Part shown: positions 11,403 to 52,824 of the stretch, piece by piece
Numbering within the stretch: position 1 is the stretch's first letter
How the letters are laid out: each line of letters opens with the position of its first letter
From: Anolis carolinensis
Taxonomy: Eukaryota
Length of the DNA stretch: 64,000 nucleotides
Reading direction: 5' to 3'
Assembly: GCF_035594765.1 (NCBI RefSeq)
Contig: NC_085843.1
Span: 51,010,201 to 51,074,200, forward strand
Notes under the pieces: model-generated
The model's database searches: none
Seen by the model: only the letters and a program-made list of their open reading frames with translations
Told to the model about the DNA's origin: nothing
Translations under genes and position numbers: made by a program

Positions 11403-12317
11403 TGTGATGACTCATGGGCCATGTAGTCCCGTTCCTAGTGCTGTTGTGACAGATGAAGAGGAAAACTTGGGTTTTCCACCATTTCAGCCAGAAAAGGAAC
11501 TTTCCCAGCCAGAAATGGAGCCCTTGCACCTGCAGGAGGTTTGTCTTCCAGAAATCTGCCAAACAAGCCCTGAGTCAAAATCTCCCCCTTTTTCTCGCCG
11601 TAATTATTATCTCCAGCAAAAAGGAGTGCAGCAGGCTAATCGCAGGAGCTTGAGAATTGCAGCAAAGCATTCAGATGATTAAGCCTGCTTCCATGAGAAA
11701 TTTTAGGGAGTCATACATCTGGACACAGAGATTGACTTTCATTTCTGATTCCCCAGAGAAGTGTTCTCTGGTGGGAAAACGAGGCCTATTTAGGTTCCTT
11801 GCTCCCGAAGGAATCTTGCGGAGTCAATTCGTCAGCTACCGGAGCAGCGTGTGTGGACAGCTACTCCTGCTCTCAAGCCTTTGTTCCTGTTCCAAGCCTT
11901 CGTTCCCAGCCTTGTTTTCTCCCCGGATCTTGCCTTGTTTCCCGGACCTCGCCAAGTAATTACCACGGATCTTGTTCTTGCTCCTCGTTTCCTTGTTGCC
12001 TTGAATCAAGCTTTGTGTTCCAAGAATCAAGTTACTTTCTAGCCTTGCTCAAGTTCATGGACTAAAGGACCTTGTCATCTCCCCTCACTTTGCTTGGCAA
12101 AGTGAGTGTTTCGGTTATTGGATTACAACTTTGGACCTTAATATTTCATATTGGACATTGTTTCTTGGGACTAATTTTGACCTTTCCTGAAAGGTCTATT
12201 TCTGGACTATTTCATACACTTGCTTTTATTAACTTTATATATTCCTTCAATAAAGATATTAGATAGATTCTGGCCTCTGTGTATGGTTATTGGTGCTCTG
12301 CAGCCTGGGTTGTGACA
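11403..12317 (+). repeat. 5' LTR (915 bp)
   Basis: TGTGATG...GTGACA; direct repeat of 16792-17706; AATAAA at 12249-12254. Confidence 0.97.
11787..11827 (+). promoter_or_regulatory. LTR promoter: TATA-like box and predicted TSS/self-primer GCGGAGTCAA (11818-11827)
   Basis: TATTTA lies 31 nt upstream of the motif; the related solo LTR has TATATA 30 nt upstream of the same motif. Confidence 0.65.
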
Positions 12318-12319
12318 GT

Positions 12320-12329
12320 TTGACTCCGC
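12320..12329 (+). promoter_or_regulatory. Primer-binding site of the self-priming (Tf1/sushi) type
   Basis: TTGACTCCGC lies 2 nt after the 5' LTR and is the exact reverse complement of LTR 11818-11827; it has no TGG start of a tRNA PBS. Confidence 0.8.
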
Positions 12330-12359
12330 CGCCCTAAGCACCAATTAACCTAGGCCAGA

Positions 12360-13346
12360 ATGTCTACCGGAACCGTGCCGGGTGGCCAGCCACTCAGCTA
12401 CACCATCGACAAGGACGAAGTGGACCGCATCCGTGACAAGCTCAATGCGCAGGATGGGGAAATAAGGGGTTTGAAGGAGCGCGGAATCCGTCTCCCGGCC
12501 ATGGCGTTGCCAACCAAGTTTTCTGGAGAAGCTTCTAAGGTTCATGTTTTCCGTCGCCAATGCCAGGCTTATCTAGAGGCCCGTGCTGCCGAGTTTCCCC
12601 AAGAAGACATCAAGGTGGCGTGGATTTACAGTCTCCTAGACGGGCCAGCGGCCAACTGGGCGACGGCACTGTTCGACCAAGCCTCCCCACATCTAAGAAC
12701 AGCGCAACACTTCTTGGACCACCTTAAGGCGACTTGGGGGATCGAGGACAATTTGGAGGCAGCCGGCCACAAACTCCGGCGCCTCTCCCAAGGAGACAGA
12801 CCCTTGTCCCAGTACATAGCCGAGTTCCGAGTGCTGGCCCATAACACCGGCTGGAACGATGTAGCCCTCAGAGGACAATTTCGGGAGGGTCTCAACATTG
12901 AGATGCTGGAGGAAATCTCCAAGGTGGATCCTCCACACTCTCTTGAAGCACTCATTGATCAATGTTTACGAGCTGAAGTCATGCTTGCCAACAGAAAGCA
13001 ATGGATCCGAGGCCAGAGCGGTAGGGCTGGAGCGAAACCTCCCGCTCCCACCGGCGTCCAGCCGCGTCCTGTGCGGAGACCCCCGCCACCAGCCCCATAC
13101 CCCAGAGGAAGCGAGGAGGTGCCAATGCAGTTGGGCAACGTGTGTCCCAGACTAGATGCCGCCGAGCAGGCCCGCCGCCAACGCCTAAATCTCTGTTGGT
13201 ACTGCGGAAACGGGGGCCACTTTGCCAGAGAGTGTCCAGCCAAAGGGAAGCCCGCCGCTCGTCTGGCAGCGGCGTCCTCCACGGAGACGAAGACATCTGA
13301 GGCGGCTGGCGCGCAGCCGGCGGGGGAAGCCAGCGACCGGGCGTAG
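12360..13346 (+). CDS. gag: Gag (328 aa), PEG10/RTL-like capsid with CCHC zinc knuckle
   Basis: PTKFSGE and QGDRPLSQYIAEFR capsid motifs; CWYCGNGGHFAREC knuckle. Confidence 0.95.
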   Translation: MSTGTVPGGQPLSYTIDKDEVDRIRDKLNAQDGEIRGLKERGIRLPAMALPTKFSGEASKVHVFRRQCQAYLEARAAEFPQEDIKVAWIYSLLDGPAANWATALFDQASPHLRTAQHFLDHLKATWGIEDNLEAAGHKLRRLSQGDRPLSQYIAEFRVLAHNTGWNDVALRGQFREGLNIEMLEEISKVDPPHSLEALIDQCLRAEVMLANRKQWIRGQSGRAGAKPPAPTGVQPRPVRRPPPPAPYPRGSEEVPMQLGNVCPRLDAAEQARRQRLNLCWYCGNGGHFARECPAKGKPAARLAAASSTETKTSEAAGAQPAGEASDRA

Positions 13347-16300
13347 AGAGGCTCGCCAACCCGGTCAAAAACCCCACTCAAGAGCCGCCAACCGGGGTCC
13401 TATTTCTCCTAGTGGTCACCTTGTGGTCGGTGAAAAAAGGACCCGTCATGGTCCATGCCATGATAGACTCAGGAGCCACAAACAATTTCATTGACAGAGA
13501 GTATGCCGACTCTCTGGGATTACAATATCATGATTTCAAGAACGCCCGTGTGGTGCAAGCCATCGATGGCCGCCCCCTCAAGACAGGTCCAGTAAGCCAG
13601 TGGTCGGAACCCACCAGAATGTGGATAAGGGAACACATGGAAGAGATTTCCTTCTTTGTTACCGAGGTACCCCACTTCCCTGTGATTTTGGGAATTCCAT
13701 GGCTGACACTCCACGACCCAAGCATCTCCTGGTCCAACAGAGAACTGCAGTTTGCTTCAAAATATTGCCAAAACCATTGCCTTGTAGCCAAGGTCTGCCA
13801 TGCCACAGACGCTGAACCCATCATCACCTTGCCCAAGAAGTACTCAGAATATTGGGATGTATTCAATGAAAAGGAAGCCGAGAGGCTACCCCCTCATAGA
13901 CCTTATGACTGTGCCATTGACTTGGTGGAGGGGGCCCCGATCCCGCGAGGACACCTCTACTCCCTGACTGAACCAGAGCAAGAAGCTCTCAGGGAGTTCT
14001 TAGAGACAAACCTCCGCAAGGGGTTTATTAGACCCTCTCAATCCCCAGCCGCTTCCCCAGTGATGTTCGTGAAAAAGAAGTCAGGGGACCTACGCTTGGT
14101 GGTGGACTATAGAGCATTGAACAATATCACTAAGCGAAACCGGTATCCCCTGCCTTTGATCTCGGACCTCTTAGACCGGCTTCGAGGGGCTAAGGTTTAC
14201 ACCAAACTGGATCTTCGAGGAGCTTATAATCTAGTCCGCATCAGGGAAGGGGACGAGTGGAAGACTGCCTTCCAGACTAAATTCGGTTTATTCGAAACCC
14301 TGGTCATGAATTTCGGTTTATGTGGAGCTCCCGCAACGTTTCAACGTTTTGTCAACGATATCTTTCAGGATTATCTAGACCGGTTCTTGATCATCTACCT
14401 GGACAATTTTTTGGTGTTTTCTAGATCGCAATCAGAACATGAGAACCACGTCAGAATGGTGTTACAACGATTGCGGGATCATGGACTTTATGCCAAGCTG
14501 GAAAAATGCGCTTTTGATCTACAAGAGGTAGATTTCCTGGGTTATCGTGTCTCGCCACTAGGGCTCACCATGGACCCGGCCAAGGTAGCGGCAGTATTGG
14601 AATGGCGGGCGCCAACCAACAAGAAAGAGGTGCAACGCTTCTTGGGGTTTGCGAACTACTACCGCAAGTTCATTCCAGACTTTGCCCGCTGGTCTGACCC
14701 AATCACCAGCTGCATCCGTGGGAAACAGCCCTTCCGCTGGACAGACCAAGCAGAGAAAGGGTTCCAGCAACTAAAGAAATTATTCACGTCCCAGCCAATC
14801 CTTCAGCACCCAGATCCTGAAACCCCTTTTGTCGTGCAGGCGGACGCCTCCGATGTGGCGATTGGGGCTGTACTCCTACAACCAGTGGGAGATCATCTTC
14901 ACCCTTGTGCTTTTTATTCCCGTCAATTGACTGCACCAGAGAGAAATTACACTATTTGGGAAAAGGAACTTTTGGCCATAAAGGCAGCCTTTGAAACTTG
15001 GAGACATTGGTTAGAAGGGGCCAAATTTCCCATTGAAGTCCATACTGATCATCGGAATCTAGAGCATCTAAGAACTGCCCGCAAGCTAAATCAGAGGCAA
15101 CAACGCTGGGCTTTATTCTTTGAACGTTTTAACTTCCAAATTCATTATGTAACCCCAGCCCAGACCAAGCAAGCAGATGCTCTGTCACGGAAACCGGAAT
15201 ATGCTGCAGGGCGCAAAGAGACTTTTGAGTCCCAGCTGCTACAGCCCGAGAACTTTGCCACGCTCACAGTGGGAAACACCAAATCCACTCCCATTGAATC
15301 AACTCCCTCTACTCCAGGGCCCCTTTGTGCTCAGGAAATCAGGGCTAGTCAGCAAGCAGATGCCTGGGCACAGGACCAACTTCGCCAAGGACTACATTTC
15401 CCCTTTTCGCTTAAGGATGGGCTACTTTGCTATAGAAATCATGTTTACATCCCTCCAGGACCGGGCAGGGAAAAAGCACTTCGTCTGTGTCATGACTGCA
15501 AGCCAGCAGGGCATTTCGGACTATTCAAAACCATGCATTTGATCCTAAGAGATTTCTGGTGGCCCAAGATCCGCAAGGATGTGGAAAAATATGTCAACAC
15601 CTGCCCAGTATGCCAGCGCTCCAAGACAAGAAGGGAAAAGCCCTCAGGGCTTCTGCATCCCCTCCCTACCCCATCTCGCCCATGGGAAATAATCTCTGCG
15701 GATTTTATCACTGATCTACCACCTTCCTGTGGATTCACCACGATCCTAGTGGTGGTGGACCTTTTTACCAAGTTAGCCCATTTCATTCCCTGTGATGGCC
15801 TTCCCACGGCCAAAGAGACTGCAGATTTATTCCTTCAACATGTCTTCAGATTGCATGGATTGCCCAAGAGTTTGGTCACAGACCGTGGGTCCCAATTCAC
15901 CTCTCGTTTCTGGAAAGCACTACAAAAACTATTGGGCATAGACTCTCGTTTATCTTCGGCTCACCATCCCCAAACGGATGGGCAAACTGAGCGTACCAAT
16001 GCCACTTTGGAACAATACCTTCGCTGTTATGTGAACTACCAGCAGGACAATTGGGCTTCCCTGTTACCGCTGTCAGAGTTTGCCTACAACAATGGGGTCC
16101 AGGCTTCAACTAAAGAAACCCCGTTCTTTGCAAACTACGGCTTCCATCCACGTTTCTTTCCTCCTGTCATTGAAACCTCAGAAGTTCCCGCAGCAGAGGA
16201 CTGGCTGCAGGAACTCACAGCGGTGCAACAACTTTTGCTCCAGCAACTGGACCAAGCCAAGGAGGACTATAAACGCCACGCTGACAAACATCGCCAGCCG

Positions 16301-17071
16301 GGCCCCGAAATCAAGGTAGGAGACCGGGTTCTTCTGTCCACTCGCTTTTTGCCCTCCCACCGCCCTTGCCGGAAGTTAGATGCCCGTTTCATTGGCCCCT
16401 ATCCAGTGGTGGCGCAACTTAACCCCGTGACTTTCAAACTCCAACTTCCGCGCTCTATGCGCATTCATCCAGTGTTTCATCGCTCCCTGCTCCTTCCGGC
16501 GGATGGTGTGCGCCCTGATGCAGACCGGCCGGCCCCCACTCCTGTTTTGGTGGATGGGGAGGAGGAATTCGAGGTTCAGGACATTTTGAATTCTCGCTTT
16601 CACCGCCGCCGCCTACAATATCTCATTGACTGGGTGGGTTTTGGCCCCGAGGAACGCTCTTGGGAAGACGCTTCCACAGTCCATGCCCCCGATTTAACCC
16701 GCCGCTTCCATCAGACCTATCCCGCCAAGCCGCGGCCTCGCGCCTCGGGGAGAGAGTCCCAGTTTGAGAGGGGGCTTGAGGAGGGGGATAGTGTGATGAC
16801 TCATGGGCCATGTAGTCCCGTTCCTAGTGCTGTTGTGACAGATGAAGAGGAAAACTTGGGTTTTCCACCATTTCAGCCAGAAAAGGAACTTTCCCAGCCA
16901 GAAATGGAGCCCTTGCACCTGCAGGAGGTTTGTCTTCCAGAAATCTGCCAAACAAGCCCTGAGTCAAAATCTCCCCCTTTTTCTCGCCGTAATTATTATC
17001 TCCAGCAAAAAGGAGTGCAGCAGGCTAATCGCAGGAGCTTGAGAATTGCAGCAAAGCATTCAGATGATTAA
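13301..17071 (+). CDS. pol: Pol: protease, RT, RNase H, integrase, chromodomain and U3-encoded tail; -1 frame relative to gag
   Basis: Frame is open from 13301 (after TGA at 13298-13300); motifs IDSGA, KLDLRGAY, YLDN, QADAS, TDH, H-H-CPVC, ADF/TDRG/TER, GPY and a chromodomain; last 93 codons lie inside the 3' LTR. Confidence 0.95.
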   Translation, partial: GGWRAAGGGSQRPGVERLANPVKNPTQEPPTGVLFLLVVTLWSVKKGPVMVHAMIDSGATNNFIDREYADSLGLQYHDFKNARVVQAIDGRPLKTGPVSQWSEPTRMWIREHMEEISFFVTEVPHFPVILGIPWLTLHDPSISWSNRELQFASKYCQNHCLVAKVCHATDAEPIITLPKKYSEYWDVFNEKEAERLPPHRPYDCAIDLVEGAPIPRGHLYSLTEPEQEALREFLETNLRKGFIRPSQSPAASPVMFVKKKSGDLRLVVDYRALNNITKRNRYPLPLISDLLDRLRGAKVYTKLDLRGAYNLVRIREGDEWKTAFQTKFGLFETLVMNFGLCGAPATFQRFVNDIFQDYLDRFLIIYLDNFLVFSRSQSEHENHVRMVLQRLRDHGLYAKLEKCAFDLQEVDFLGYRVSPLGLTMDPAKVAAVLEWRAPTNKKEVQRFLGFANYYRKFIPDFARWSDPITSCIRGKQPFRWTDQAEKGFQQLKKLFTSQPILQHPDPETPFVVQADASDVAIGAVLLQPVGDHLHPCAFYSRQLTAPERNYTIWEKELLAIKAAFETWRHWLEGAKFPIEVHTDHRNLEHLRTARKLNQRQQRWALFFERFNFQIHYVTPAQTKQADALSRKPEYAAGRKETFESQLLQPENFATLTVGNTKSTPIESTPSTPGPLCAQEIRASQQADAWAQDQLRQGLHFPFSLKDGLLCYRNHVYIPPGPGREKALRLCHDCKPAGHFGLFKTMHLILRDFWWPKIRKDVEKYVNTCPVCQRSKTRREKPSGLLHPLPTPSRPWEIISADFITDLPPSCGFTTILVVVDLFTKLAHFIPCDGLPTAKETADLFLQHVFRLHGLPKSLVTDRGSQFTSRFWKALQKLLGIDSRLSSAHHPQTDGQTERTNATLEQYLRCYVNYQQDNWASLLPLSEFAYNNGVQASTKETPFFANYGFHPRFFPPVIETSEVPAAEDWLQELTAVQQLLLQQLDQAKEDYKRHADKHRQPGPEIKVGDRVLLSTRFLPSHRPCRKLDARFIGPYPVVAQLNPVTFKLQLPRSMRIHPVFHRSLLLPADGVRPDADRPAPTPVLVDGEEEFEVQDILNSRFHRRRLQYLIDWVGFGPEERSWEDASTVHAPDLTRRFHQTYPAKPRPRASGRESQFERGLEEGDSVMTHGPCSPVPSAVVTDEEENLGFPPFQPEKELSQPEMEPLHLQEVCLPEICQTSPESKSPPFSRRNYYLQQKGVQQANRRSLRIAAKHSDD
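13322..13386 (+). promoter_or_regulatory. Candidate -1 ribosomal frameshift signal (G_GGG_GAA, stem-loop, possible pseudoknot)
   Basis: Gag/pol overlap is limited to 13301-13346; 6-nt spacer, then stem GACCGGG (13335-13341) / CCCGGTC (13360-13366). Confidence 0.6.
16559..16723 (+). other. Chromodomain coding segment of integrase
   Basis: EEEFEVQDILNSR...QYLIDWVGFGPEERSWE...FHQTYP. Confidence 0.92.
16766..16791 (+). promoter_or_regulatory. Polypurine tract
   Basis: gagagggggcttgaggagggggatag directly abuts the 3' LTR. Confidence 0.85.
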
Positions 17072-17706
17072 GCCTGCTTCCATGAGAAATTTTAGGGAGT
17101 CATACATCTGGACACAGAGATTGACTTTCGTTTCTGATTCCCCAGAGAAGTGTTCTCTGGTGGGAAAACGAGGCCTATTTAGGTTCCTTGCTCCCGAAGG
17201 AATCTTGCGGAGTCAATTCGTCAGCTACCGGAGCAGCGTGTGTGGACAGCTACTCCTGCTCTCAAGCCTTTGTTCCTGTTCCAAGCCTTCGTTCCCAGCC
17301 TTGTTTTCTCCCCGGATCTTGCCTTGTTTCCCGGACCTCGCCAAGTAATTACCACGGATCTTGTTCTTGCTCCTCGTTTCCTTGTTGCCTTGAATCAAGC
17401 TTTGTGTTCCAAGAATCAAGTTACTTTCTAGCCTTGCTCAAGTTCATGGACTAAAGGACCTTGTCATCTCCCCTCACTTTGCTTGGCAAAGTGAGTGTTT
17501 CGGTTATTGGATTACAACTTTGGACCTTAATATTTCATATTGGACATTGTTTCTTGGGACTAATTTTGACCTTTCCTGAAAGGTCTATTTCTGGACTATT
17601 TCATACACTTGCTTTTATTAACTTTATATATTCCTTCAATAAAGATATTAGATAGATTCTGGCCTCTGTGTATGGTTATTGGTGCTCTGCAGCCTGGGTT
17701 GTGACA
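16792..17706 (+). repeat. 3' LTR (915 bp)
   Basis: Matches the 5' LTR except one difference found (A11741 vs G17130); AATAAA at 17638-17643. Confidence 0.97.
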
Positions 17707-17734
17707 CTTATAAGGCTAGCATTCAAACCACTAC

Positions 17735-18136
17735 ACTGCAATGGTCAAAGTGTGCTCCGCTGAGCACTTAGGGCTCCACGAAGCATACTGAGGGGCTCCA
17801 CGGTTTCCTTCTTTTCCTCCTTCCCCCAGCTTTCCCTCCACTTTCCCGTTTCTCCCCCTCCATTGTCTAGTTCACCACCAAAAGCCTTTCCCCATGCCTT
17901 CCTAGCCCCCAAAAGCCCTGTTTCATCGCCTACCTCATCCCCCTCACCCCAAAAATCCTTTTTCCTCACCTTCCTCACCCCAAAAGCCTTTCCCCCCTCA
18001 CCCCCTTGTCACTCAGATCCTTTCCCCCCTCGCATTCCTTATTTCCAAAGTGCTATTTCCCTCCTAGGGGAGTGCTTTGATTGTGCCCATGTCTGAAATA
18101 TATGCACTATATAGAGAATATATGCACTATATAGAG

Positions 18137-18174
<38 letters not shown>

Positions 18175-18245
18175 TTTCTTGGGGCTTGACAAGAAACTTT
18201 TGCTTAAAAAAGAGCTCTGTGGCTGAAAAAGTTTGAGAACCCCTG
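17735..18245. mobile_element. Degenerate hAT-like MITE with C-rich interior and (CA)n
   Basis: Right end gtttgagaacccctg resembles a hAT TIR; left end unclear. Confidence 0.4.
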
Positions 18246-20142
18246 CTTTAGAGGGTTATAAAACAATCTTTGATACCTTCGGTTCATCAGAATCCCTTGT
18301 TATTGTCTATTGTTATTTGAGTCATTCACTTTGTACACTCAACAATGAAATGTTACCATTCAGTAATGTTTAAAGCTCGTAGCAGGCATCTGTGGATTTT
18401 ATCAGGAAAGGTGTAGAGTGGTGATACAAGGTATTATGATGCCCCTATAAAAGAGTCATCATAATATAGAATTTTAGAGTTTTCCCCTTCTGTATCAAAA
18501 GACTCATCCCAAGATGTTGTGACAAGATTCTTCCTACACAGAAAGACTTTTTTGCCTCCCCCCTTATGTTGAAGAACCACTTGGGAAAAGGAAGGTGACG
18601 TCCTGAATTGATTGATAACATGACCAAGTGCATGCACAAGGATTCAAAGAATTCATAACTCATCACTTTGCCTGGGTGGAGACATCAATCAGTTTCAGTT
18701 TCTCACATATGTAAATTTTGTTATTTAGAAGTTTATCCTTTCTCAAATATGAAGATGTTTGGAAATCTTGCCAAGTTCTTCCAAAATGAACTAGTCTGAA
18801 CAGTGACAGTAACATATACCAGGTCTCTTATTCCAAAGATGCCAGAAGAATTCTTGATGGCCTGAACACAGATTTCTGGCATGTGTCTTCAAGATGTAAG
18901 TATTGCTATAGGAAAACAAGTGATTAATGCAGCAATTTTACACACACATATGCACAATGGAAGGGAGAACATATGCACCATCCATTAAAAATCTTTCCTT
19001 ATCTTACAGTATACTGAGCTAGCTTCTGACATTTGATACTTTAATTCAGTTCGAATGAACTCGGTGGTCTTGTCTCAAACCCCTGAGATTGAGTCGTCTT
19101 TATCAGAAACGCAAATAATTTGACATGTAGTAACTCAGAGGCTGACCTTTGGCCAAGGAGATCCCAAAGGACTAAGATAGTCTGAAGGTTAAACCACCTC
19201 CTATCCTTAGAGGAGTATTCCAGTTCTGATGCTGAGGTCATACATCGGGCATTATGGAAGGTTGTATTGTTACCTACACAAGGTCTGACTGGTGAGCAAA
19301 TAGAGACTTCCATTTATAGTCTCATGATGTCTGTAGTTTTACCATGGAGGCGTAATTCATCAAAGAGTCAAACAATGAAATCTTTATGTAGCTTTTCCCC
19401 AGTCTCCACTCCCTCGTGAAGGCTCAAACACAGAGCAAAGAGTTAAACACACTTGTAGAAACATGGTCCCAGCAGGGTTGCATTTTTGTTTCAAGCTGTT
19501 CCTTAGTTAAAAAAAGAAAAGAAAAGAAAAGAAAATAAAGAAAATAAATTCAAGTGTCTGGTGTGCAGCTTATTTGTTTTTGACCTTGGTACAATGTCTA
19601 ATGAGTTCCTATATGAGAACAGATTAGATTTATATATTTATACTGTGAAATCCAATACACAGAACACTTAAAATATGAATACAAAGAAAAGAACAAATAA
19701 ATAGAAACCACACATAATTTTGTAGTCTCAGCTTGGTTCATACCAAGTCTCTTCATGAGGATGCCATAACGATGGCATAGACCATCATTTTTTATTTGTC
19801 TTAAAATCTGTAATTGGACAGTTAAATTAAGGAGCACTGGATGTTTTATAAAGTTTCTGCCCTTTGAACCTCATATTACCTCTCTGTGAAAATTGATAAT
19901 GGTTTTTTTTTTTTTGTTATTCCGCATCATACTTGGAGTTATTCTCCTCAAGAACTCTACATCTATCCTGATATATTTTTTCAGGCAGGTGAAGATGGGC
20001 CTCTTTCTGTCTAATGTATGCTCTGGTACAGTCACCGCTTCTGGGTTGTGCTTCCTATAAGGCATTAAGTTGAGGAATAATATGGTTTGGATAAGGGTTA
20101 TTATGTTGTTTTATTATCTTTTGTAGATTGGTATTGTCATTC

Positions 20143-20460
20143 TGGAGCCCCTGGTGGCGCAGCGGATTAAACCGCTGAGCTGTTGAACTTGCTGACCGAA
20201 AGGTTTGAACCGGGGAGCAGGATGAGCACCTGCTGTTAGCTCCAGCTTCTACAGACCTAGCAGTTCGAAAACATGCAAATGTGAGTAGATCAATAGATAC
20301 CGCTCTGGCAGGAAGGTAATGGTGCTCCATGCAGTCATGCTGACCACATGACCTTGGAGGTGTCTATGGACGACACCGGCTCTTTGGCTTAGAAATGGAG
20401 ATGAGCACCAACCCCCAGAGTTGGACACGACTAGGCTTAACATCAGGGGAAACTTTTAGC
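20143..20460 (+). mobile_element. Sauria SINE
   Basis: tRNA-like head ggagcccctggtggcgcagc; body matches the copies at 28689 and 45189. Confidence 0.88.
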
Positions 20461-21636
20461 TATTGTCATTCTTAACATTGTATTTAGCAATTTGGTTAAC
20501 CACTTTATGATGAGGGATAATAAAATAGTACCATATTTAAATTCCTAAGCATCCTACTATTAAGTGGAGTGAGATAGTTGCCTCTGATTGGAAATGATAA
20601 AAGGCATTGACATGCTGGAACATATTGGTAATGTTTTCTGCCCAATTTACTATATTTTTTTGTTGGGGAGGTATTTTGAGCATTTCACGCATCTTTCAGA
20701 GAGTCGTGGGGAAGCACCTGCACCAGCCTATGCAGCCATGTAGACCAGGGTGCCCTGGTGCTGGCTTGGCATCCAGCCCACCATTGGCTGCAAGGAGGAA
20801 TTGATTCCATCAGCTTGAAGACTTCTAAAATAGTCTGTGATGTGAAACACCTGCTGTATCCATTAATCACCAATGAATTCTCCTTTGACATCAGTGACTT
20901 GCGCTAGTCTTGATATCACACAAATCTCTGGAGGAAGGCCTGGAATGGCTCCAGTTCCAGTTCAGAACAGAATATTACATATTCAGGCAGCCTACAGAGC
21001 ATTTTTAAATTGTTCTATGAAGTAGCAGTGGGAGTGGGCAAACTTTTTATGGAAAAGTTTGGGAATAGTGTATACGGATTTTGTAACCAGAAGCATTATT
21101 TAATAGTTTGCTCAAACTGATGAACCTTCTTGATGCTTATTAACAGCACAATAACTGAATCCTCTTCTTTTAATGCATATCTCTGCATATTAGTGGCTGC
21201 TGTGACTGCACCAGTGTAAAATGTATAGATTTAGGTCTTTTCATCAGAGCAAAGCAGTTGTTCACAGAGAGACAGACAGAGATGGAGACAGATTCCCGGT
21301 TGTGTCATGAGCCAGTCAGGAGAAATAAGACATGGTTAAATTTGTAGATAGGAAAGATTAGTGAGCATATTTGTGTTTTGTGGTTCGTAGTCATAGGATT
21401 GCTGATTATATTTATTAGCTCTAAATATTAAACAGCCGGCAAAATTCCATTGTATATAAATAAGACATTTGAGACCTGGAAGTAAGCCATTACTGATATA
21501 GCCAGCTGGTGCTTTTTAACAGTTTTATTTCAGAATAGCATTTAAGGAATCTCACTGAACATTTGATGCTTTTTAAAATTACAATAAGAGTATATGCATT
21601 CAACTGAGATATCAGTATGGATTTCCATTGCATATA

Positions 21637-21976
21637 CAATAGGGTCTCGCTTATCCAACCTTTGCTTATCCAACATTCTGGCTTATCCAACGCAGTCTGC
21701 CTTTTAGTAGTCAGTGTTTTTGTAGTCAATGTTTTCAATACATTGCAATGTTTTGGTGCTAAATTCGTAAATACAGTAATTACCACATAACTTTTCCAAG
21801 TATTGAACTGCTTCTTCTGTTGATTTGTTGTAAAACATGTCTTGGTGCTTAATTTGTAAAATCATAATGTAATTCAATGTTTAATAGACTTTTCCTTAAT
21901 CCCTCCTTATTATCTAACATTTTCGCTTATCCAACGTTCTGTCGACCCGTTTATGTTGGATAAGTGAGACTCACTT
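21637..21976. mobile_element. Tc1/mariner (Tigger-like) MITE
   Basis: TA-flanked left end; inverted repeats gtctcgcttatccaac / gttggataagtgagac; internal ttatccaac repeats. Confidence 0.75.
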
Positions 21977-27880: not shown

Positions 27881-28032
27881 AGCCTAGGTTATGACCCTTA
27901 ATGGCAACCAACTTTGTCTTATCTGGATTCAATTTCAACTTATTTTTCTCCATTTAGCCTATTAGTTCCTCTAGACATTCATTAAGAATATACAAGCAAT
28001 ACTTAGCTAAGGCTGTTTTTAATGCTCTACGA

Positions 28033-29339: not shown

Positions 29340-29420
29340 TAGAATCATAGAATAGTAGAGTTGGAAGAGACCTCATGGGCCATCCAGTCCAACCCCCTGC
29401 CAAGAAGCAGGAAATCGCAG
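29340..29420 (-). mobile_element. Very short CR1 3' end
   Basis: Nearly identical to 39948-40025. Confidence 0.75.
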
Positions 29421-41564: not shown

Positions 41565-41732
41565 GGCCCCATCTATACTGATCATTTAATGCAGTTAGAA
41601 GCTAACTGTAAACTGCAAAAAAGCGTGCGAAAAAATACCTTAATCCCTTTGCATCAATGCTCTGTGTATTGTGTAATCACTTTCTTCAATAGTGGTTTGC
41701 AACTGTATTAAATGGTCACTGCAGATGGGGTC
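41565..41732. mobile_element. Short Harbinger-like MITE
   Basis: About 32-bp imperfect TIRs (ggccccatctatactgatcatttaatgcagtt and its inverse). Confidence 0.7.
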
Positions 41733-43087: not shown

Positions 43088-43947
43088 TGTCAGGACCCAG
43101 GCTGCAGAGCACCAATAACCATGCGCAAAGGCCAGAATCTATCTAATATCTTTATTAAAGGAATATATAAGGTTAATAAAAACAGGTGAAGAATAAAGTT
43201 CAGAAGTAGACCTTTCAGGAAAGGTCAATTATAGTCCAGGAAAACAATGTCCAATATGAGATATTAAAGTCCAAAGTTATAATCCAATAACCGAAACACA
43301 CACCTTGCCAAGCAAAGCGTGGGGAAATGACAGGGTTCTTTTAGTCCAATGGAGCTTGACAACAAAGACTGGAAGCAAACTAGATGCTTGGCAAACAAGG
43401 CTTGATACGTGGCAACAAGAGGCAAGAAGCAAGAACGAGGTCCGTGGCAAGATCCGAGGACAAGGCAGGCTTGAAACTGGAACAAGGTCCGAGGGAACTG
43501 GAGTAGCGTAGTCCACACACAATCTACTCCCGAAGCTGCCGAATTGACTCCGCAAGGATTTCTTTGTGGCAAACACCTATATAGGATCTTGTTTTCCCGC
43601 CAAGGAACACTTTCCCTGGGGAACAAGAAACGAAACCCATACTGTGTCCAGATGCATGACTCCTTAAAGTTTCCCAAGGGAAGCAGACTTAATCAGCTAA
43701 TTGTCTGGCAGCTATCCTGGCGCTCCGGCGAATCGCCTCCCGAGCGCCTCTATCTTGATTATAATAATCCCGGCGAGAAAATGGGGGAGATTTCTGCTCA
43801 AGGCTTGTTTGGCTGACTTCTTGTGGGCAAACATCTTGCAGGTGCAAGGGCTCCAATTCTGGCTGAAACGGTGGGAAACCCAAGTTTTCCTCTTCATCTG
43901 CCTCAATAGTACCAGGAACGGGACTACATGGCCCATGAGTCATCACA
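43088..43947 (-). mobile_element. Solo LTR (860 bp), diverged subfamily of the 11403 element
   Basis: TG...CA ends homologous to the 11403 LTR; 5-bp TSD ATTGG at 43083-43087 and 43948-43952. Confidence 0.95.
43689..43946 (-). CDS. U3-embedded ORF (85 aa) homologous to the Pol C-terminal tail
   Basis: MTHGPCSPVP...DEEENLGFPPFQPE...KSPPFSRR.YY...RRSARIAA aligns to the last 92 aa of Pol; probably not expressed from a solo LTR. Confidence 0.6.
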   Translation of the reverse strand: MMTHGPCSPVPGTIEADEEENLGFPPFQPELEPLHLQDVCPQEVSQTSLEQKSPPFSRRDYYNQDRGAREAIRRSARIAARQLAD

Positions 43948-45188
43948 ATTGGTAAGAAGAGGCATAAATCAGTGCAAAGCTATAGGTAAGGTGCTGATTT
44001 AATTGAAAGCACATTGAAATAGCCAGGTTTTCAACTTTTTCCGGAAAGAGTCTAATGTGGGGATTAATCTTTTTTTGGGGGGGGGGGGTGGTCCAGAGCC
44101 GGGGGGGGGGCACCTCTGAGAAGGCCCATTTCCTTGTCCCCGCCAATCATGTTTGAGATGGTGGCGGGAGTGAGAGAAGGGCCTCTCCAGAAGATCTTAA
44201 CGCTCGTGCAGGTACATAGCAAAAGATGTGATCATGAAGATAGGCTGGACCCGAACAAACATGATTTTAATCAGCTAAAAATACAGTAAACCCTTTCCTC
44301 CTTTTACTGGCTTACATGTCATTTAGGAAGAAAGATTGAAAATACCTGAGTTTCATCCCAAGCAATACTATGAAATACTTGAATAAAGTGATTTATGGGG
44401 TATTTTTGGACTACAGAGAGAATTTTAGTTTGAATTAGGATTGTGTTTGGGATCAGGGTCAAGGTCAGAGTTAAATATTAAGGTATGATTAAGGTACAAA
44501 AGTACCCTTCTTCTATTGCCTGACCTCAATGAAAATTCCAATGTGCCCCCACACATTAAATAAGGTCAGATGTCTGACAACCATAGCAATGCACCTGCTG
44601 TCTTGTATCATGGATTTCTGACAGACAGCAAGGGACATATTTTTTCCTCCCCAATACTTAAAAAATACTTTAGCCAGGGCAGAACATACGTTGAGGCCCC
44701 CTGTGTGTCCATGGTTCCATCTGTTTATATGCCTCATCAGCTGTTTTGGGATTTTAAAATGAGGAGAAATACTGGAGTAGTCTATACCAGCATACCACAA
44801 GGAAATCTTGGATTTTTCCAGAGCATCAGGATATCCAGTGCTCTGTCCTCGCTACTTCCTACTGTCTCTTAAGTTATTATTTGTTCTCCCACTTTCAACG
44901 TACTATATTCACATGAAAAAAATAAAAACTATTATAAAAAAAGGATAGCCAGTGCTCTGTAGCAGCTTATTTTTCGCCCAATATTGGATTTTATTTTAAC
45001 CTTTTTATCATGTGTTTTTCATGCAGTCCCATGATCAAGCGTGCATTTTCAATCTGAGTTTTCTACCCCCCCCCCTCCAACCCCACTTTCTTTTGAGTTT
45101 TGAGGCCTGTGTAAATAGGGCCTTAGACTGAGGGGAATTGTAGCCCAACATGTAGATCCATCATTCCCCATTCCAATGTATAGTAGTT

Positions 45189-45512
45189 AAGGTAAAAGTT
45201 TTCCCCTGACATTAAGTCTAGTCATGACAACTCTTGGGGTTGGTGCTCATCTTCATTTCTAAGCCAAAGAGCTGGTGTTGTCCATAGACACCTCTAAGGT
45301 CATGTGGCTGGCATGACTGCATGGAGCGCTGTTACCTTCCCGCCAGAGCGGTACCTATTGATCTACTCCTATTTGCATGTTTTCAAACTGCTAGGTTGGC
45401 AAAAGCTGGGGCTATCAGCGGGAGCTCAATCTGCTCCCCGGATTCAAACTGCCAAGCTTTCAGTCAGCAAGTTCAGCAGCTCAACGATTTAAGCCACTGC
45501 ATCACTGGGGGT
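45189..45512 (-). mobile_element. Sauria SINE
   Basis: Reverse complement of the 28689 family. Confidence 0.88.
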
Positions 45513-46111
45513 TCCATTTCCCATATATAGGACTGGTAAAAAAATAAACTTTTTAGGCTGCCATTTTACTAGTTTAACTGAAATGTATGGAACTTCATTC
45601 TGAGATGTATCAACAACTGCATTATTACTGTCTGCAGACATGTTGACTGTTTGGAATAAAAAAGCACAGTGAGACTGAAGATTAAGATGCAAGGTTAATG
45701 TCAGACTGAACCACTGAGTTCATGTATCAGTGTGCTCTTTTCCTTTTCAATGAATCATCCTTCAGTTGAGCCTCTGTTTAGAGTTATTAGACAATCCTTA
45801 ATTAGTTCCAGGATGGAATTGAGATGAACTAACAAGGGCTTCCATTAAAACACTGACAGCTGTTACAAGCTTGTCATAAAGAATAATTGTAGTGAGCAAA
45901 GTATATTTTGAAAATGCTATAGTATAAGTTTCGGAAGTAAGCGACTTGTACAGCATCATTGAAGCACAGATGTTTGGTAAACACTGTTTTCAGATAGCTA
46001 GGGTTGTCTGAATGCAGGCTCATGCTCATAATTCCCAATCATAAATGTCACCATATTCATAGGATTGTGAGCTCACAGTCACAAAAAGGAGAGAGAAAAA
46101 AGTGGGTCAGA

Positions 46112-46632
46112 GCACTTGATGAACCAACCTGGACACAGTATATTATTTGAGAACACAGAAATGCTTGACCACTCCAACAACTATCATGTCAGACTACACA
46201 GAGAAGCCATTGAAATTCACAAGCATGTGGACAACTTCAACAGAAAAGAGGAAACCATGAAAATGGACAAAATCTGGCTACCAGTATTAAAAAACTCAAA
46301 AATTAGAACAGCAAATAAGAAGCAACACTCTGAAAACAGAAAAGTTCCAAGAGCAGCTAATGACTCTGGATGCCCCCAGGCAGAAATAGCCAGGAGATGA
46401 ACCTTTCCTATGCTAATGAAGGTGATTAACTGCAACATTCACACTGGCTTTCCAACTGACAAAGAGTTTTTCTCTCACTCTGGACTTTCCACAGATATAT
46501 ATATAAACCCTCCTTGCTTCGTTTCTCCATACCTCACAACCTCTGAGGATGCCTGCCATAGATGTGGGCGAAACGTCAGGAGAGAATACTTCTGGAACAT
46601 GGCCATACAGCCCAGAAAACATACAACAACCC
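46112..46632 (+). mobile_element. Penelope-like element 3' fragment (end of GIY-YIG region plus pLTR)
   Basis: VRLHREAIEIHKHVDNFNRKEE; flanking 9-bp repeat TGGGTCAGA at 46103-46111 and 46633-46641. Confidence 0.88.
46540..46580 (+). ncRNA. Minimal type I hammerhead ribozyme in the Penelope pLTR
   Basis: cct-CTGAGGA-t-gcctgc...gtgggc-GAAA-cg-TC-agg: CUGANGA, stem II, GAAA, palindromic ACGT stem III and a GUC site. Confidence 0.8.
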
Positions 46633-48329
46633 TGGGTCAGAAAATTTCTGATAGCTTTTGTGGAATGTTTTTTTTTTTTAAAAAGATGTAGCAGCAGCCA
46701 GATCCTTCTACTTTGAAACTTTTCAGTTAACTTTCAGACAGTTGATCCTTTACTTTCCCATAATTTTGATGCTTCTCCAAAAATGGGTATCTTATTATAT
46801 AATTCGTCTGAGGAAGGACAGAATATGTAATCTTTCTTTTTTCTGATAGACTTTGCAGTGTATTAAAAATATCACATCTTGTAATGTTACTTCTTGTGGA
46901 TTACAACTGCCATCACCCACCAGTCTACATGGTCAGTAGCCATGCTGACAGGGCAATTCTGGTAATTGTTGTACAAAAGGTAACATTTTCAAGGTAATCG
47001 CATCAGATTTTATGGAAGTATACAAATAATTTGTAACAGACAGCTAGGGTATGTTTGTCGGTTCATCAATAAATCCTGATAAATATTAGTTGCTTTGCAC
47101 AGAAGGTAACTAGACTTTAACTGAATAGAAATTACTCCAATAAAAACATCATTTTTTTTTAAAGTAGACAAAGCAAAGTCTGGCATGCAGTGTTGGGTTC
47201 ATTGGTTGCCTACTATAAGGTTAAGCTCTGATGCAATCAGTTCAAGTTGCTGTTCTTTGGCACCGTGTTTCATTCTTAATGAAGGAAAGAAGAATATATG
47301 GTAATGCTGGGTGTGAATGAAAGAAACTATGTCATGAATAATGTGGATGAAAAATTTCCCTGTAGTTGTGCTAGATATTTGGGCCTTTTGTACTATTAAT
47401 CCTGATGTCATGTCTACTTTGTTTGAGATGGTTTATATAGAAATTGGATTTGTTTTTGTAGAATGGGGGCACATCTGCATTTACCACTTAGGTCTTTGTG
47501 AAAATGGCAGAGAAGAAAGTGATTTCACTGTGCAGATGATTACATGTGAAGTCCTAGAATCATTTAGAGACATGGATGAGTTTATAAGGACTGCGGAGGG
47601 TGGCCTTGTACAGGTTTCAGTATCTGCAGAATCTGACATGACACCTTCCCCAGCCTTGTGCAGATTGCCAGAGCCCCTGTCCTTTAATCGGTTTTGCCAT
47701 GCAATGTGTTTGGGTTTTTTTTACATTTAAGCATACTGATGTGCCCTATAGTTTCTATTTCAGAGTATCTAACTTTTTATTTCATTTATTTATTTCTTTA
47801 TTATTCAAACTTATATGCCACCACTCCCCTAGGGCTCCACCACTCCCCTAGGGCTTTACTTACCATTCTTCAAAACCCTTATTAAGTATTGCTGTTTGCA
47901 TTCACTGTGTGTATCATAAACACCATGCTGTCCAGCTGCTTTCAGACATGTGCTCTGGGTCTCAGAATAAATGCAAAAAAGGGAGTAGTGGAGATGAATG
48001 GCCATCTTCCCTAGATTTTAGTTAATACTTAGTGTACAACTTGGAGTCTTCCAGATGATTTTGGACTCATAGAAGCCCTAGCTAGCAAAGTACGTGGTGA
48101 AGAATGTTGGAAATTGAAGTTTATCAATATCTGTCCCAGCATTATGCAGTAAATAAAATTGTCACCAGACATATCATGCATCATGGGACTATGGAATATG
48201 GAAAGTCCAGGGATATCAGCACTGACCATGACACAATAAGATTATGCATGTGACATGATTACATCTTTTGCCAAGAGATAGGAAACATGTATTAAGATGG
48301 ACTACAAACATCTTCAAGCTTTAAAACCT

Positions 48330-50841
48330 CCGCAGGGGTGGTGGACCTATTAAGATGGTCCGCCCCAGGAGACTTATGGATCCTGAGGGATTCCTGAGGT
48401 CTCTTGGGGATCTGTCTGCCATGGAAGCTGACGATCCTGTTGATGCCTTGGTCGCTCGCTATAATAGTGAGTTGTCCAGGGCAATAGACACGATCGCTCC
48501 CGAACGTCTCCTCTCGCTACGTTGAATTGCCCCAGTTCCCTGGTTCACCGGGGAGCTGGCGGAGATGAAACGCGTGAAATGGAGACTAGAGTGCCGCTGG
48601 TGGACAACTCGTGATGTATCTGACCGAGCACGGTCTAGAGCCACTATTAGGGCCTATTCCGCGGCGTTGCGGGCAGCCAGGAAGGCTTTCTCGACTGCCC
48701 GCATCGCGTCTGCAACAAATAGATCCTCAGAGTTGTTTCGGGTTGTTGGGGAGCTCCTCCACCCTCCTCAGGCTGGGGGGGGCACCTGACATCCTGGCAA
48801 CTCGGTGTAGCGAGTTTGCTCACCATTTTGCAGACAAAGTCGCTCAGATTCGTTCTGACTTAGATGCTGGCCTTGTTGCAATGCCAGGTGAGGTAACCGA
48901 GGCTTCTGTCTGTTCGATCTTGTGGGATTCGTTTCAGCTTGTGCAGCCTGATGATGTGGACAAGATTCTTGGAGCGGTGAGGGCGACCACCTGTGCCCTT
49001 GACCCTTGCCCATCTAGGCTTTTAAAACAGGCCAGTGGTGGGTTGGTTGATTGGTTTTTGAGAATAATTAATGCCTCTTTGGGGCAGGGTAGATTTCCAT
49101 CTTGCCTAAAACAAGCGGTTGTGAGACCTGTCTTGAAGAAGGCCTCCCTAGATTCGACCAACTTGTGTAACTACAGACCAATCTCCAACCTTCCATTTTT
49201 GGGCAAGGTCTTGGAGCGGGTGGTTGCCTCTCAGCTCCAGGGATTCTTGGATGATACGGATTTTCTGGACCAATCACAGTCTGGCTTCAGGCCTGGTTTC
49301 AGTACCGAGACGGCTTTGGTCGCCTTGGTGGATGACCTCCGCAGGGAACTGGACAGGGGGAGTGTGACCCTGCTGGTTCTCTTGGACATCTCAGCGGCTT
49401 TCGATACCATCGACCATGGTATCCTTCTGGGACGTCTCTCTGGGATGGGCCTTGGGGGTGCTGTTTTGCAGTGGCTTCAGTCCTTCCTGGAGGGGCCTTC
49501 CCAGATGGTGAAGCTGGGGGACATCTGCTTGGACCCCTGGCCATTGTCCTGTGGGGTCCCGCAAGGTTCTATTCTGTCCCCCATGCTTTTCAATATCTAC
49601 ATGAAACCGCTGGGCGAGGTCATCCGGGGTTTTGGAGTTCGGTGCCATCTCTACACGGATGACGCCCAACTCTATTACTCTTTTCCACCAAAATCCAAGG
49701 AAGCCCCTCGGATACTGGATCAGTGTCTGGCCGCTGTGTTGGCCTGGATGAGGGCGAACAAGCTGAGACTTAATCCTGATAAGACAGAGGTCCTCCAGGT
49801 CAGTCGCAAATCTGATCGGGGTATTGGGTGGCAACCTGTGCTTGACAGGGTCGCACTCCCCCTGAAGGCGCAGGTCCGTAGCTTGGGGGTCCTCCTGGAT
49901 TCGGGGCTGACTCTTGAGGCTCAGGTGTCAGCCGTGGCCGGGAGGGCCTTTGCACAATTAAAACTTGTGCACCAGCTGCGACCATACCTCAAGAAGTCTG
50001 ATCTGACCATGGTGGTCCATGCCTTAGTTACCTCTAGACTGGACTATTGCAATGCGCTCTACGTGGGGCTGCCTTTGAAGACGGCTCAGAAATTGCAACT
50101 AGTACAACGCTCGGCAGCCAGGTTTCTAACTGGAGCAAATTACAGGGCACGTTCAACGCCTCTGTTTAAGGAGCTCCACTGGCTGCCATTTACCTTCCGA
50201 GCCCAATTCAAGGTGCAGGTTCTTACCTACAAAGCCCTAAACGGTTTGGGACCCGCCTACCTTAGAGACCGCATTTCCCCCTACGAACCCACACGATCTC
50301 TTCGCTCGTCGGGGGAGGCCCTTCTCTCGCTTCCACCACCCTTGCAAGCGCGGTTGGTGGGGACAAGAGAGATGGGCCTTCTCTGTCGTGGCCCCCCCCA
50401 GCTTTGGAATTTGCTCCCTAGGGAGATTAGGCTGGCCCCCACCCTCCTCTCCTTCCGGAAGAACCTGAAAACCTGGCTTTTCCGGAAAGCCTTTGATGAG
50501 TGAATTCTGTTGGTTCAAGCTGTCTGCCTACATAATAATAGACCCACTGATTCGCCTTCTTATTGTCATTATTGTCATTTCTAGTACTTTAATGACTATG
50601 TCAATTACGTAACTACCTCCCCCTGATTTGACACATTCGCCCTTTGGCCTAGACTTGTGTTTTATATCTGTTTTTAACGCTTTTTCCTGCAATATTGTTT
50701 TTATGATGGTTTTACTGATATTGTTGATTTATTGTTGTAAATTTATGTGTTTTGATTTGTTTTTATATTGTGATGTTGGGCAAGGCCCCCTGTGAGCCGC
50801 CCCGAGTCCCTACGGGGAGATGGGGGGGATAGAAGAATAAA

Positions 50842-50889
<48 letters not shown>
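48330..50889 (+). mobile_element. 5'-truncated L2 LINE with long RT ORF remnant (48611-50503) and (ATT)n tail
   Basis: NYRPISNLPFLGK, QSGFRPGFSTET, LLDISAAFDTIDH, GVPQGSILSP, YTDD, TSRLDYCN; frameshift near 48780; tail at about 50842-50889. Confidence 0.93.
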
Positions 50890-51725
50890 GCAGTCATGTT
50901 TTTCTGGCTTAGTTTGTGACACAACAGAATTTGAAATATACAATAATCTGTAAACTTCTAAATAAACATTAAAATTTTGCGTGTTTTTTCTTTCTTAAAT
51001 GATTTAATCTAATGTACATTTGTTTTAACAGATGCATTTATTTTTAGTTTATTCCTGCTGTACTGTTTTGAGGGGCAATTTTTATAAGCTACCTAGGAAA
51101 TGTTCTAGATGTTGCTTGTTTTTTTTCTTTAAAGAGAAGTCATAAGCTGATTTTATCAAGCAATAATTATTTTAAAGACAACAACTTTATTTTGGGAAAT
51201 TCAAAGTTTTGTTATTGTGTATTGTGCTTAAATAAAAGGAAAACACTCAAACCCCATTTTCTAAACACTTTCAATGTTTTAAAGTCAACATTTTAGACGT
51301 TGACTTTAAAATTAAAGTCAAAATCTGAAACATAGTTTTATTAATATGTTAAATATAAATATCAGAGAAAAGGGTCTGTCTATTTTACATTTATATTCAT
51401 TATCAAATGTACTTATTTCAGAGGGATTCACACCACCCCACATAATGCTTTAGACTGCAATTCTATACATAGATATTTGTAATGCATCTTATTGAACTTG
51501 ACCTCCTTCTGAGTAGACACATTTCTCCTTTGTGGTCTCTGTGAAATGTGCATATATGGTAGTTGATGCACCTGTGCAGCAACTATCATATGTGCGTATT
51601 TCATAGATGACCACTCAAAGAAATATGGTTACAGGTAAGCAACCATCATATTTTATTATATTGTCAAAGTTCACTTTGTGCATAAAAGCTAAATGGGTGG
51701 TGGAGCCAAAATTTGACATTTTTAT

Positions 51726-52824
51726 TGTCAAAGACAATAACGCCACCAAATAGAGTACAACACAGTTTATTGAAGTTACAGAACTAAAAAATGCCCGTAG
51801 GAAACAAAGGACTAGGCAAACACTTGTCTTCAGTGTGAAAAGTAACAGAAACAGCTCCGTTTGAACTAAAACGGTTCGAAAGGATAAACCGGATTAAACA
51901 GGAGTTTAATCCGGATTAAATCAAAAGTGCTTATTTCAGCCTGGCAATTTAAACAAACAAAAGTTGGTAAACAAAGGTCAAAATGAACACAAAAAGCTGG
52001 CAGCAGATTCCTCTCTGCTACTCAAAAGCTACAGATGAGTAACTCAGGCTGTTTACTCCTCCGTGCAACGAGCGAAATCCGGGTCCAGGCACATCAATCA
52101 GGGTAACGGCGGTCAGCAGGGTCCCAATCCGGTCCAAGGTCGAAAGCCAAGTGCAGACGTCTAAAGTTCCACAAGTTCCACTGAAAGCCACAGAAGGGAT
52201 AGTCCGAGGTCGTAGTCAGTCAGTCAGTCCAGCGTCAATCCAGAGTAGGTAATTAATGTCCGTCAAAAAGACGACGGAGGTCCAAGGTATCCAGCAACGA
52301 ATCACACCCGTCTTCAGGAAGTTCCCCAACAAGAGCCCAAGCGTTCGTCCAGATTACCTTGCCCAATGCAATTAGCCATTGATCCTAAACCCCATTTTAT
52401 CCCAGTTCATAACTCCTCATCGCTGTCAGCTGCTATCCTAATTCCAGGTGCCTCATCATCATCATCCTCATCAGAGCTAAAACACCTTTGACTACGCCCC
52501 ACAGCATCCCCAGCTGTGGATCCCGCTCCATCCCTCCAGCCCGTCCATGGGTCTGATCCTGCAACCCGCCAATTGCCTCCCATGCTATCATTGCCGGTGA
52601 CACCCAAATCCTCCCTCACACGAGTCCACTCCATGTCATCCTCCTCTGAGCTAACCAACTCTTCCTCCATTCCCTCGGTAAAACCCTCAAATGAGTCTTC
52701 ATCTATTGGCTCTGCAAATAAGTCCCGGAGCCGTTTCCTTTCACGCTCCTCAAAAGAGTCTGACTCTCGAGGAGTCTTACGACCCCGTCTCCTAGTACCG
52801 GAGCCAGAAGGCTCAACCATAACA
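51726..52824 (-). mobile_element. Solo LTR (1099 bp) of a second LTR family
   Basis: Minus-strand ends TGTTATG...TGACA; 5-bp TSD TTTAT at 51721-51725 and 52825-52829; minus-strand AATAAA at 51766-51771. Confidence 0.88.
52407..52820 (-). CDS. U3-embedded acidic ORF (137 aa) with basic NLS-like clusters and a DLF-x8-FEGF motif
   Basis: Open from the LTR 5' edge, with ATG at LTR nt 5-7 as in the other LTRs; coding role is inferred. Confidence 0.55.
   Translation of the reverse strand: MVEPSGSGTRRRGRKTPRESDSFEERERKRLRDLFAEPIDEDSFEGFTEGMEEELVSSEEDDMEWTRVREDLGVTGNDSMGGNWRVAGSDPWTGWRDGAGSTAGDAVGRSQRCFSSDEDDDDEAPGIRIAADSDEEL

Follow-up and report, generated by a model that had tools for sequence, protein, structure and literature searches.

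Four LTR starts of two types in the Anolis window

We analysed a stretch of 64,000 nucleotides (nt) from Anolis carolinensis (contig NC_085843.1, positions 51,010,201 to 51,074,200; hereafter the window), in which four retrotransposon long terminal repeats (LTRs) begin with an open reading frame (ORF). An ATG occupies LTR nt 5-7, and the frame is open from nt 2, in the LTRs that start at positions 11403, 16792, 43947 and 52824. The starts given in an initial annotation of the window, T-GTG-ATG for the first three and T-GTT-ATG for the last, all read as claimed; those at 43947 and 52824 sit on the minus strand, the strand having been absent from that annotation. Two of the LTRs are the pair of one young full-length chromovirus (family A): the 5' LTR (11403-12317, plus strand; 915 nt, TG...CA) and the 3' LTR (16792-17706, plus strand) show 1 difference in 915 nt and are flanked by the target-site duplication (TSD) CTTAT at 11398-11402 and 17707-17711. 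The third is a solo LTR, A' (43088-43947, minus strand; 860 nt, TSD CCAAT; ORF of 85 codons at 43946-43689), which is 75% like the family A LTRs, and the fourth is a solo LTR, B (51726-52824, minus strand; 1,099 nt, TSD ATAAA; ORF of 138 codons at 52823-52407), without significant DNA similarity to the A-type LTRs. Both types are Ty3/gypsy chromovirus LTRs. The LTR families are dissimilar, as annotated, and the independent cases number two (A/A' and B), not four.

In the family A element, a gag ORF (12354-13346, plus strand) with Retrotrans_gag and zinc knuckle is followed by a pol ORF of 1,256 codons (13301-17071, plus strand) for protease (PR), reverse transcriptase (RT), RNase H (RH), integrase (IN), SH3 and a chromodomain (pol residues 1090-1138; 16568-16714, plus strand; PF00385, E = 3.4 × 10−8), which then continues via the polypurine tract into the 3' LTR. 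A primer-binding site of the self-priming, Tf1/sushi type (12320-12329, plus strand) stands directly after the 5' LTR, and the 10 nt complementary to it, LTR nt 416-425 (11818-11827, plus strand), place the inferred 5' end of the RNA 32 nt past a predicted TATA-like site at LTR nt 384 (11786-11792, plus strand). Self-priming is the arrangement of Tf1/Sushi elements in the account that PMC6317226 gives of these groups. With gag followed by PR-RT-RH-IN, LTRs with a TSD, a chromodomain and a self-priming site in place of a tRNA primer-binding site, family A has the features of a Tf1/sushi-type element; its position in the tree is beside amphibian elements. Database relatives carry the Anolis carolinensis label.

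Several further features of this copy were observed. The RT active-site motif is altered in the young copy at 13301-17071, and the copy is therefore probably unable to replicate by itself. The overlap of gag and pol (13301-13346) places pol in the -1 frame; the G-rich run found there does not match a canonical slippery heptamer. With an RNA start at LTR nt 416 and the AATAAA at nt 847 (11818-12317), R would measure about 450 nt and U5 less than 50 nt; the R region contains short pyrimidine-rich repeats.

The pol frame continues into the 3' LTR

In family A, pol contains no stop codon before the polypurine tract (16766-16791, plus strand; in frame, ...EEGDS), and its final 92 residues, the U3-encoded integrase tail (16793-17071, plus strand), are the ‘LTR ORF’ of A. 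The shared phase of the ORFs, which stands as annotated, arises because the ORF continues the Pol frame. In the 5' LTR the same 92-codon ORF (11404-11682, plus strand; ATG at 11407) lies upstream of the transcription start; since the RNA starts at about LTR nt 416 and the ORF ends at nt 280, it falls wholly within U3 and would enter the element RNA via the 3' LTR only. The ORF copies in 5' and solo LTRs would then be silent by-products of LTR duplication.

The window holds no interior of family B, and the B peptide was identified as the C-terminus of predicted RT-RH-IN proteins in the database. From family B clusters of 46, 75 and 4 members we examined 34 rows, of which 29 contain the end of SH3; 27 of these 29 have a DSVM junction, about 38 residues past the SH3 anchor, and 23 rows have the full tail. 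A chromodomain core was found in 0 of the 34 rows, and Pfam found none in P0008, so that family B, which belongs to the clade described below by descent, is a derivative without the chromodomain that characterizes chromoviruses. In family A the GDSVM junction lies 106 residues past the same anchor; among the 30 rows examined, a chromodomain core was recognised in 17, every one of which has the full tail; the remaining 13 mostly end earlier (P0045 has a short tail). Across the clade the conserved junction is G-D-[SG]-V-M and the U3-encoded tails span 85-143 residues. These data make it very probable, as far as sequence can tell, that the U3 ORFs are the C-terminal tail of Pol, that is, of integrase, reached by read-through of the polypurine tract.

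Some lizard protein models are chimeras with these elements (P0014, P0078-P0080 (ATP13A5-like), P0004, P0007, P0010, P0017, P0045 and P0046). A full A-type LTR tail ends four ATP13A5 models, as an annotation artefact or an exonised LTR.

Long acidic tails in a squamate clade

In a tree of 12 rows, A, B, the Podarcis and Rhineura elements and P0089 form one clade (support 99/99), within which B is sister to Podarcis (98/98); grouping A with B is rejected (approximately unbiased test, p-AU = 0.024). A quick tree of 37 rows, with 10 rows left out by the anchors, agrees with the careful 12-row tree. The simplest reading is that the ancestor had a chromodomain and a tail with RRSxR, and that B lost the chromodomain and gained another tail.

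Of the 120 relatives listed by a search that favoured chromodomain-bearing proteins, 113 could be anchored; 427 further matches were unlisted. Most listed relatives end soon past the chromodomain (median about 8 residues beyond the anchor), and extensions of at least 70 residues were found in 12 of the 113, namely in 4 of 5 clade rows, where aspartate plus glutamate (D+E) make up 16-21% of the residues, and in 8 of 108 others. Among the matches listed, D+E is at most 5% in 7 of these 8 long outside tails, and long acidic U3-encoded tails occur only in the squamate clade. Read-through past the chromodomain outside the clade falls in all three phases, V in 15, C in 9 and S in 10 of the 108 rows, with junctions taken from protein only and with P0111, which fits two phase classes, counted as S. 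Two amphibian clusters, that of P0164 (Pleurodeles) and that of P0113 (Leptobrachium), run on beyond the chromodomain for 55-130 residues of different composition; the Leptobrachium read-through is in another phase and has variable ends.

Length of the frames and selection on the tail

The frames open from nt 2 measure 92, 92, 85 and 138 codons in the LTRs starting at 11403, 16792, 43947 and 52824, respectively. Their stop codons end at LTR nt 280, 280, 259 and 418, ahead of TATA-like sites at nt 384, 384, 364 and 424, so that all four LTRs have the annotated ORF of 85-138 codons closing before the predicted TATA-like region. In 5,000 dinucleotide shuffles the chance of any 5' frame this long was 0.037-0.047 for A and A' and 0.0008 for B; the possibility raised beforehand, that the ORFs are no longer than in shuffled LTRs, thus does not hold. 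Comparison of A with A' over 85 codons gave a ratio of nonsynonymous to synonymous substitution rates (dN/dS) of 0.36 in the Pol frame (bootstrap 0.18-0.76), vs. 0.68 and 1.11 in the other frames. Alignment gaps between the two comprise one of 21 nt inside the ORF and 17 after the stop codon, 14 of which are not multiples of 3, and each of the 7 indel sites listed for public contigs falls within the stop codon of the tail or beyond it. Family A tails, 85-97 residues long, are 46-97% identical (median 65%) and thus diverge much more rapidly than the bodies, whose median identity is 95% (17 rows); the median identity of B tails is 83%. Taken together, these findings give good grounds to conclude that the tail is maintained by selection at the protein level.

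Neutral read-through would leave pol without a stop codon, U3 open by chance and any conservation at the level of DNA. The frequency of read-through outside the clade in all three phases, 8 of 108 rows running for at least 70 residues, fits this explanation, as do the A-type ORF lengths, which are marginal against shuffles (p about 0.04). However, the length of the B frame, the dN/dS below 1 in the Pol frame only, indels that keep the frame within the tail and shift it past the stop codon, and the scarcity of D+E in the long outside tails compared to the clade all argue for a coding tail, and we consider neutrality very improbable.

The ATG at the LTR start

The 5' attachment (att) motifs tabulated for related elements are TGTYANR for Sushi, TGTNANR for rGmr1 and TGTNATRT for Mag C (PMC3601003, Table 3), and plant CRM LTRs start with TGATG in the description in PMC3059260. 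The A at LTR position 5 is mirrored at the 3' LTR ends, and an att consensus with A at position 5 and R at position 7 yields ATG in about 1 in 8 cases. At the junctions of the same phase outside the clade, inferred from protein, the residue is R in 8, T in 5 and M in 2 of 15 rows, whereas M is found in 3 of the 4 clade lineages (A, B and Podarcis) and P0089 reads GDGVV. The ATG is accordingly an internal Met codon, set largely by the integrase attachment sequence and by common descent. The initial annotation had treated it as a special signal, while allowing that it might reflect only the integrase attachment consensus; it is the latter that largely applies, given that the starts fit TGTNANR, that the lineages share ancestry and that the fourth member has V for M. 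In itself the ATG is of little interest.

Retroviral genes that overlap U3, nef and mouse mammary tumor virus (MMTV) sag, produce separate proteins from their own spliced RNAs. A comparable accessory peptide, begun at the conserved ATG on a spliced or read-through RNA, alone or beside the fusion, had been suggested for these LTRs. Retention of M at the A, B and Podarcis junctions, compared to 2 of 15 outside, would suit such a peptide, as would the purine at -3 in both LTR types, the G at +4 in B, and a candidate splice acceptor upstream of the LTR ATG (16713-16714, plus strand), the best by a crude count (11 of 14 pyrimidines) and with no ATG between. Conversely, the att consensus alone gives the ATG at the frequency stated above, the three M lineages are one clade in which P0089 departs, the self-priming complement places the RNA start downstream of the ORF, and the fusion suffices to explain the length and selection data in full. 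Among the 15 joints listed of 141, none with GT-AG ends led into the ORF, a weak negative as the run types were guessed to be RNA. We therefore regard a separate peptide as improbable. No RNA run was listed among the sequencing runs that contain the sequence, and two joints from three runs guessed to be RNA (16825-17204 and 17233-17477) were rejected as splices, having no GT-AG ends and unknown letters between.

Linear motifs in the tails

The A and B peptides show no alignment above chance (shuffle P = 0.42 and 0.39), in agreement with the annotated lack of alignable similarity. A likeness seen by eye (EENLGF vs. DSFEGF, and RIAA near both ends) was not significant, and RIAA is not retained in B copies. 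The description of both peptides as acidic applies strongly to B (D+E 28%) and only modestly to A (D+E 14-16%).

Near its end the A tail has an HMGN-like motif, RRSLRIAAK (17030-17056, plus strand), and the A' tail has RRSARIAAR (43704-43730, minus strand), identical at 7 of 8 residues to RRSARIAT of yeast Dot5. RRSxRIAA[KR] is retained in 18 of 19 A tails, and 12 of the 19 read RRSARIAA. The Podarcis element, of which 15 rows were examined, has a body 61% identical to A; its tail follows GDGVM, is acidic and cannot be aligned to A or B, and 5 of 5 full tails end in RRSARL. The motif RRSxR[IL] has a shuffle P of 0.0001-0.0006 per tail. HMGN proteins contact the nucleosome acidic patch through RRSARLSA, and Dot5 does so through RRSARIAT, as stated where PMC12487698 and PMC13347269, respectively, treat these contacts. 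At the level of sequence, the A and Podarcis tails have this pattern: RRSxR[LI] with three arginines in a putatively disordered region.

The B tail contains instead a TIM-like segment (52680-52754, minus strand), composed of a predicted helix, LF, an 8-residue acidic linker and FEGF. The pattern [LI]F-8-FxGF occurs in 22 of 22 B tails (shuffle P = 0.002). In an AlphaFold2 model the B tail is predicted to be disordered save for a helix at residues 24-35 (pLDDT 70-74) directly before the motif. As described in PMC9987994 and PMC11740969, a TIM consists of a helix, an acidic linker 8-16 residues long and an FxGF sequence that is essential in partners of LEDGF/HRP2; the B tail, with its modelled helix, matches this definition, and the A tails, in which FxGF is absent and N[LM]GF stands instead, do not.

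Two further short patterns were observed. The segment SSGEEDAEW in the tail of P0089, an element that also has a degenerate-looking chromodomain, is similar to SSEEDDMEW, which 22 of 22 B tails retain, and may represent a further, acidic-Trp motif. In 19 of 19 A tails we found [DE]E[DE]EN[LM][GV]F, plus SxxFxR (16841-16864), possibly a degenerate FxGF-like site or a constraint at the level of DNA.

Database searches with the tails returned little. Pfam gave no match on the A and B tails, the two motif regions, searched against PDB sequences, gave 2 chance-level matches for one and 0 for the other, and the best ESM Atlas scores, 0.76 and 0.80, were below the lead threshold. A search with the B tail gave 4 matches, 2 of which were the family itself and 2 of which, unrelated repeat proteins (fn3 and unknown), were rejected.

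Turnover of tails between lineages

Four tails that cannot be aligned are joined to Pol bodies that are related, with 55-61% identity to A. The sister of Podarcis is B, yet it is A that has the Podarcis motif, and a grouping of A+B is rejected; the B tail was accordingly replaced or rewritten. Such replacement could come about if U3 tails were cassettes recombined between families by LTR swapping, one integrase being served by several tails. LTR swapping is a topic of the literature on plant elements. In support of this, 10 of 136 family A pairs combine bodies at least 97% identical with tails less than 70% identical, and the family A tail data reject the body tree. On the other hand, the tail tree is compatible with the body data (p-AU = 0.15; 5,000 replicates, fewer than advised), resolution of the body tree is poor, and the main groups of the two trees agree. 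Body and tail identities are correlated (Spearman 0.66 in A and 0.93 in B), the rows examined included no mixed combination of A and B bodies and tails, and rapid divergence of a disordered tail gives the same picture. Tail turnover between lineages happened, with swapping as a possible route, and cassettes exchanged between families are an unlikely general account. Of the proposal in the initial annotation that U3 is a cassette supplying host-mimicking motifs, an integrase tail whose host-like motifs differ between lineages is upheld, and exchange between families is unsupported.

Elsewhere in the window, a stop-free stretch of 637 codons (48590-50503) encodes a LINE-type reverse transcriptase, L2/CR1-like by eye.

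Discussion

The explanation that we favour, with a probability of roughly 0.6 on the sequence evidence, is that a squamate clade of Tf1/sushi-type elements has a U3-encoded, disordered integrase tail that is under selection and would tether integration to chromatin by host-like motifs. Under this explanation, pol continues beyond the G-D-[SG]-V-M junction and enters the 3' LTR; U3 would thereby double as the code for the tail, and the tail would tether the integration complex to chromatin, a step that we give an even chance. [quoted passage not shown] The helix, acidic linker and FxGF of family B, from which the chromodomain has been lost, may bind the TFIIS-N-terminal-type domain of LEDGF/HRP2 and would steer insertion to transcribed genes. 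A bolder form, which we regard as doubtful, would make U3 a fast-evolving slot for mimics, with HMGN anchors in two lineages and in B a true TIM that captures LEDGF/HRP2 and diverts insertion away from silent chromatin and into active gene bodies, a convergence with lentiviruses achieved by a linear motif.

Several points weigh against this explanation. The dN/dS comes from a single pair and 85 codons, and U3 has DNA-level constraints too. The B fusion was seen in predicted proteins, not in DNA, and such protein sets favour long ORFs. The motifs were picked after viewing the sequences, so that the shuffle P values are optimistic; 6 of 19 A tails have RRSLR instead of RRSAR, one (P0134) of the 8 long read-throughs found outside this clade likewise has RRSxRL, and the fourth clade tail (P0089) has neither motif. 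Furthermore, the B copies are close kin, which makes 22 of 22 weak evidence of motif selection, the AlphaFold2 model has a low overall confidence, with a mean pLDDT of 57, and the B tail has no relative outside its own family among 1.84 billion representatives.

Selection data show a coding function, not its kind, and the tail might serve in nuclear import, particle assembly, Pol stability or the blocking of host silencing without choosing sites, its basic motifs then being nuclear localization signals or nucleic-acid contacts. Consistent with this, a basic cluster begins B (RRRGRK) and another ends A, and, as noted, P0089 has neither motif. Against it stand the fit of the conserved residues to the spacing of two specific chromatin-binding patterns, the recurrence of the nucleosome-type motif in two tails that cannot be aligned, and the coincidence of the motif change with chromodomain loss; we judge a role apart from site choice unlikely, and tethering to chromatin the better explanation.

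The closest known parallel is found in plant CRM group A elements (CR motif, CHDCR), in which the coding region likewise extends into the 3' LTR, according to the accounts of this group in PMC3059260, PMC3605345 and PMC6317226. The lizard elements, unlike plant CRM, are self-priming rather than having a tRNA-Met primer-binding site and belong to a vertebrate squamate clade, and are thus analogues, not members, of that group; A and Podarcis keep chromodomain and tail together, and the motifs fit the HMGN-type and TIM patterns. That the same architecture, read-through with selection, exists in a vertebrate clade is well supported. The lizard elements share gag, PR-RT-RH-IN, a chromodomain, self-priming, TGTNANR-type ends and a 5-nt TSD with V-clade (Tf1/sushi) chromoviruses as outlined in the relevant parts of PMC6317226 and PMC3601003, but whereas most listed relatives stop soon past the chromodomain, the squamate clade has long acidic U3-encoded tails.

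The motifs have counterparts in host and other proteins. In A (RRS[AL]RIAA) and Podarcis (RRSARLK) the three arginines and the serine of HMGN RRSARLSA, Dsup RRSSRLTS and Dot5 RRSARIAT are kept in a disordered context, judging from the motif descriptions in PMC12487698 and PMC13347269; unlike in those proteins, the putative motif ends a retrotransposon integrase and is LTR-encoded. The B tail resembles the TIM/IBM of IWS1, MLL1, JPO2 and others, as presented in portions of PMC9987994 and PMC11740969, in its predicted helix ending in LF/IF, its 8-residue acidic Ser/Thr linker and its FxGF. Lentiviral integrases bind the LEDGF domain via the catalytic core, in the summary given in PMC5053271, whereas B would use a putative linear motif in an LTR-encoded tail. 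The integrase of murine leukemia virus (MLV), in the same source, has a flexible C-terminal tail with a short BET-binding motif, a tether to a chromatin reader of the kind proposed here; motif and partner are different, and the part of PMC5053271 on MLV does not report that tail as U3-encoded. The nef/sag genes are likewise coded within U3, but the lizard ORF is continuous with pol. We found no description of these tails, nor of a retrotransposon integrase that mimics HMGN and TIM motifs, in a literature search that covered mainly open-access papers; the families probably have entries in Repbase.

To our knowledge, the insertion-site choice of vertebrate LTR retrotransposons is largely untested. 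The account of CRM elements cited above gives the partner of the plant CR motif as still unknown; for both motifs described here, specific host proteins can be named as candidate partners. One sequenced lizard contains two young, high-copy families whose putative targeting modules are not the same, a chromodomain plus an HMGN-like motif vs. a TIM-like motif only. A retrotransposon integrase that mimics HMGN and TIM motifs is, at about even odds from the sequences at hand, a specific and testable proposal; if true, these elements would be a vertebrate parallel to the plant CRM elements.

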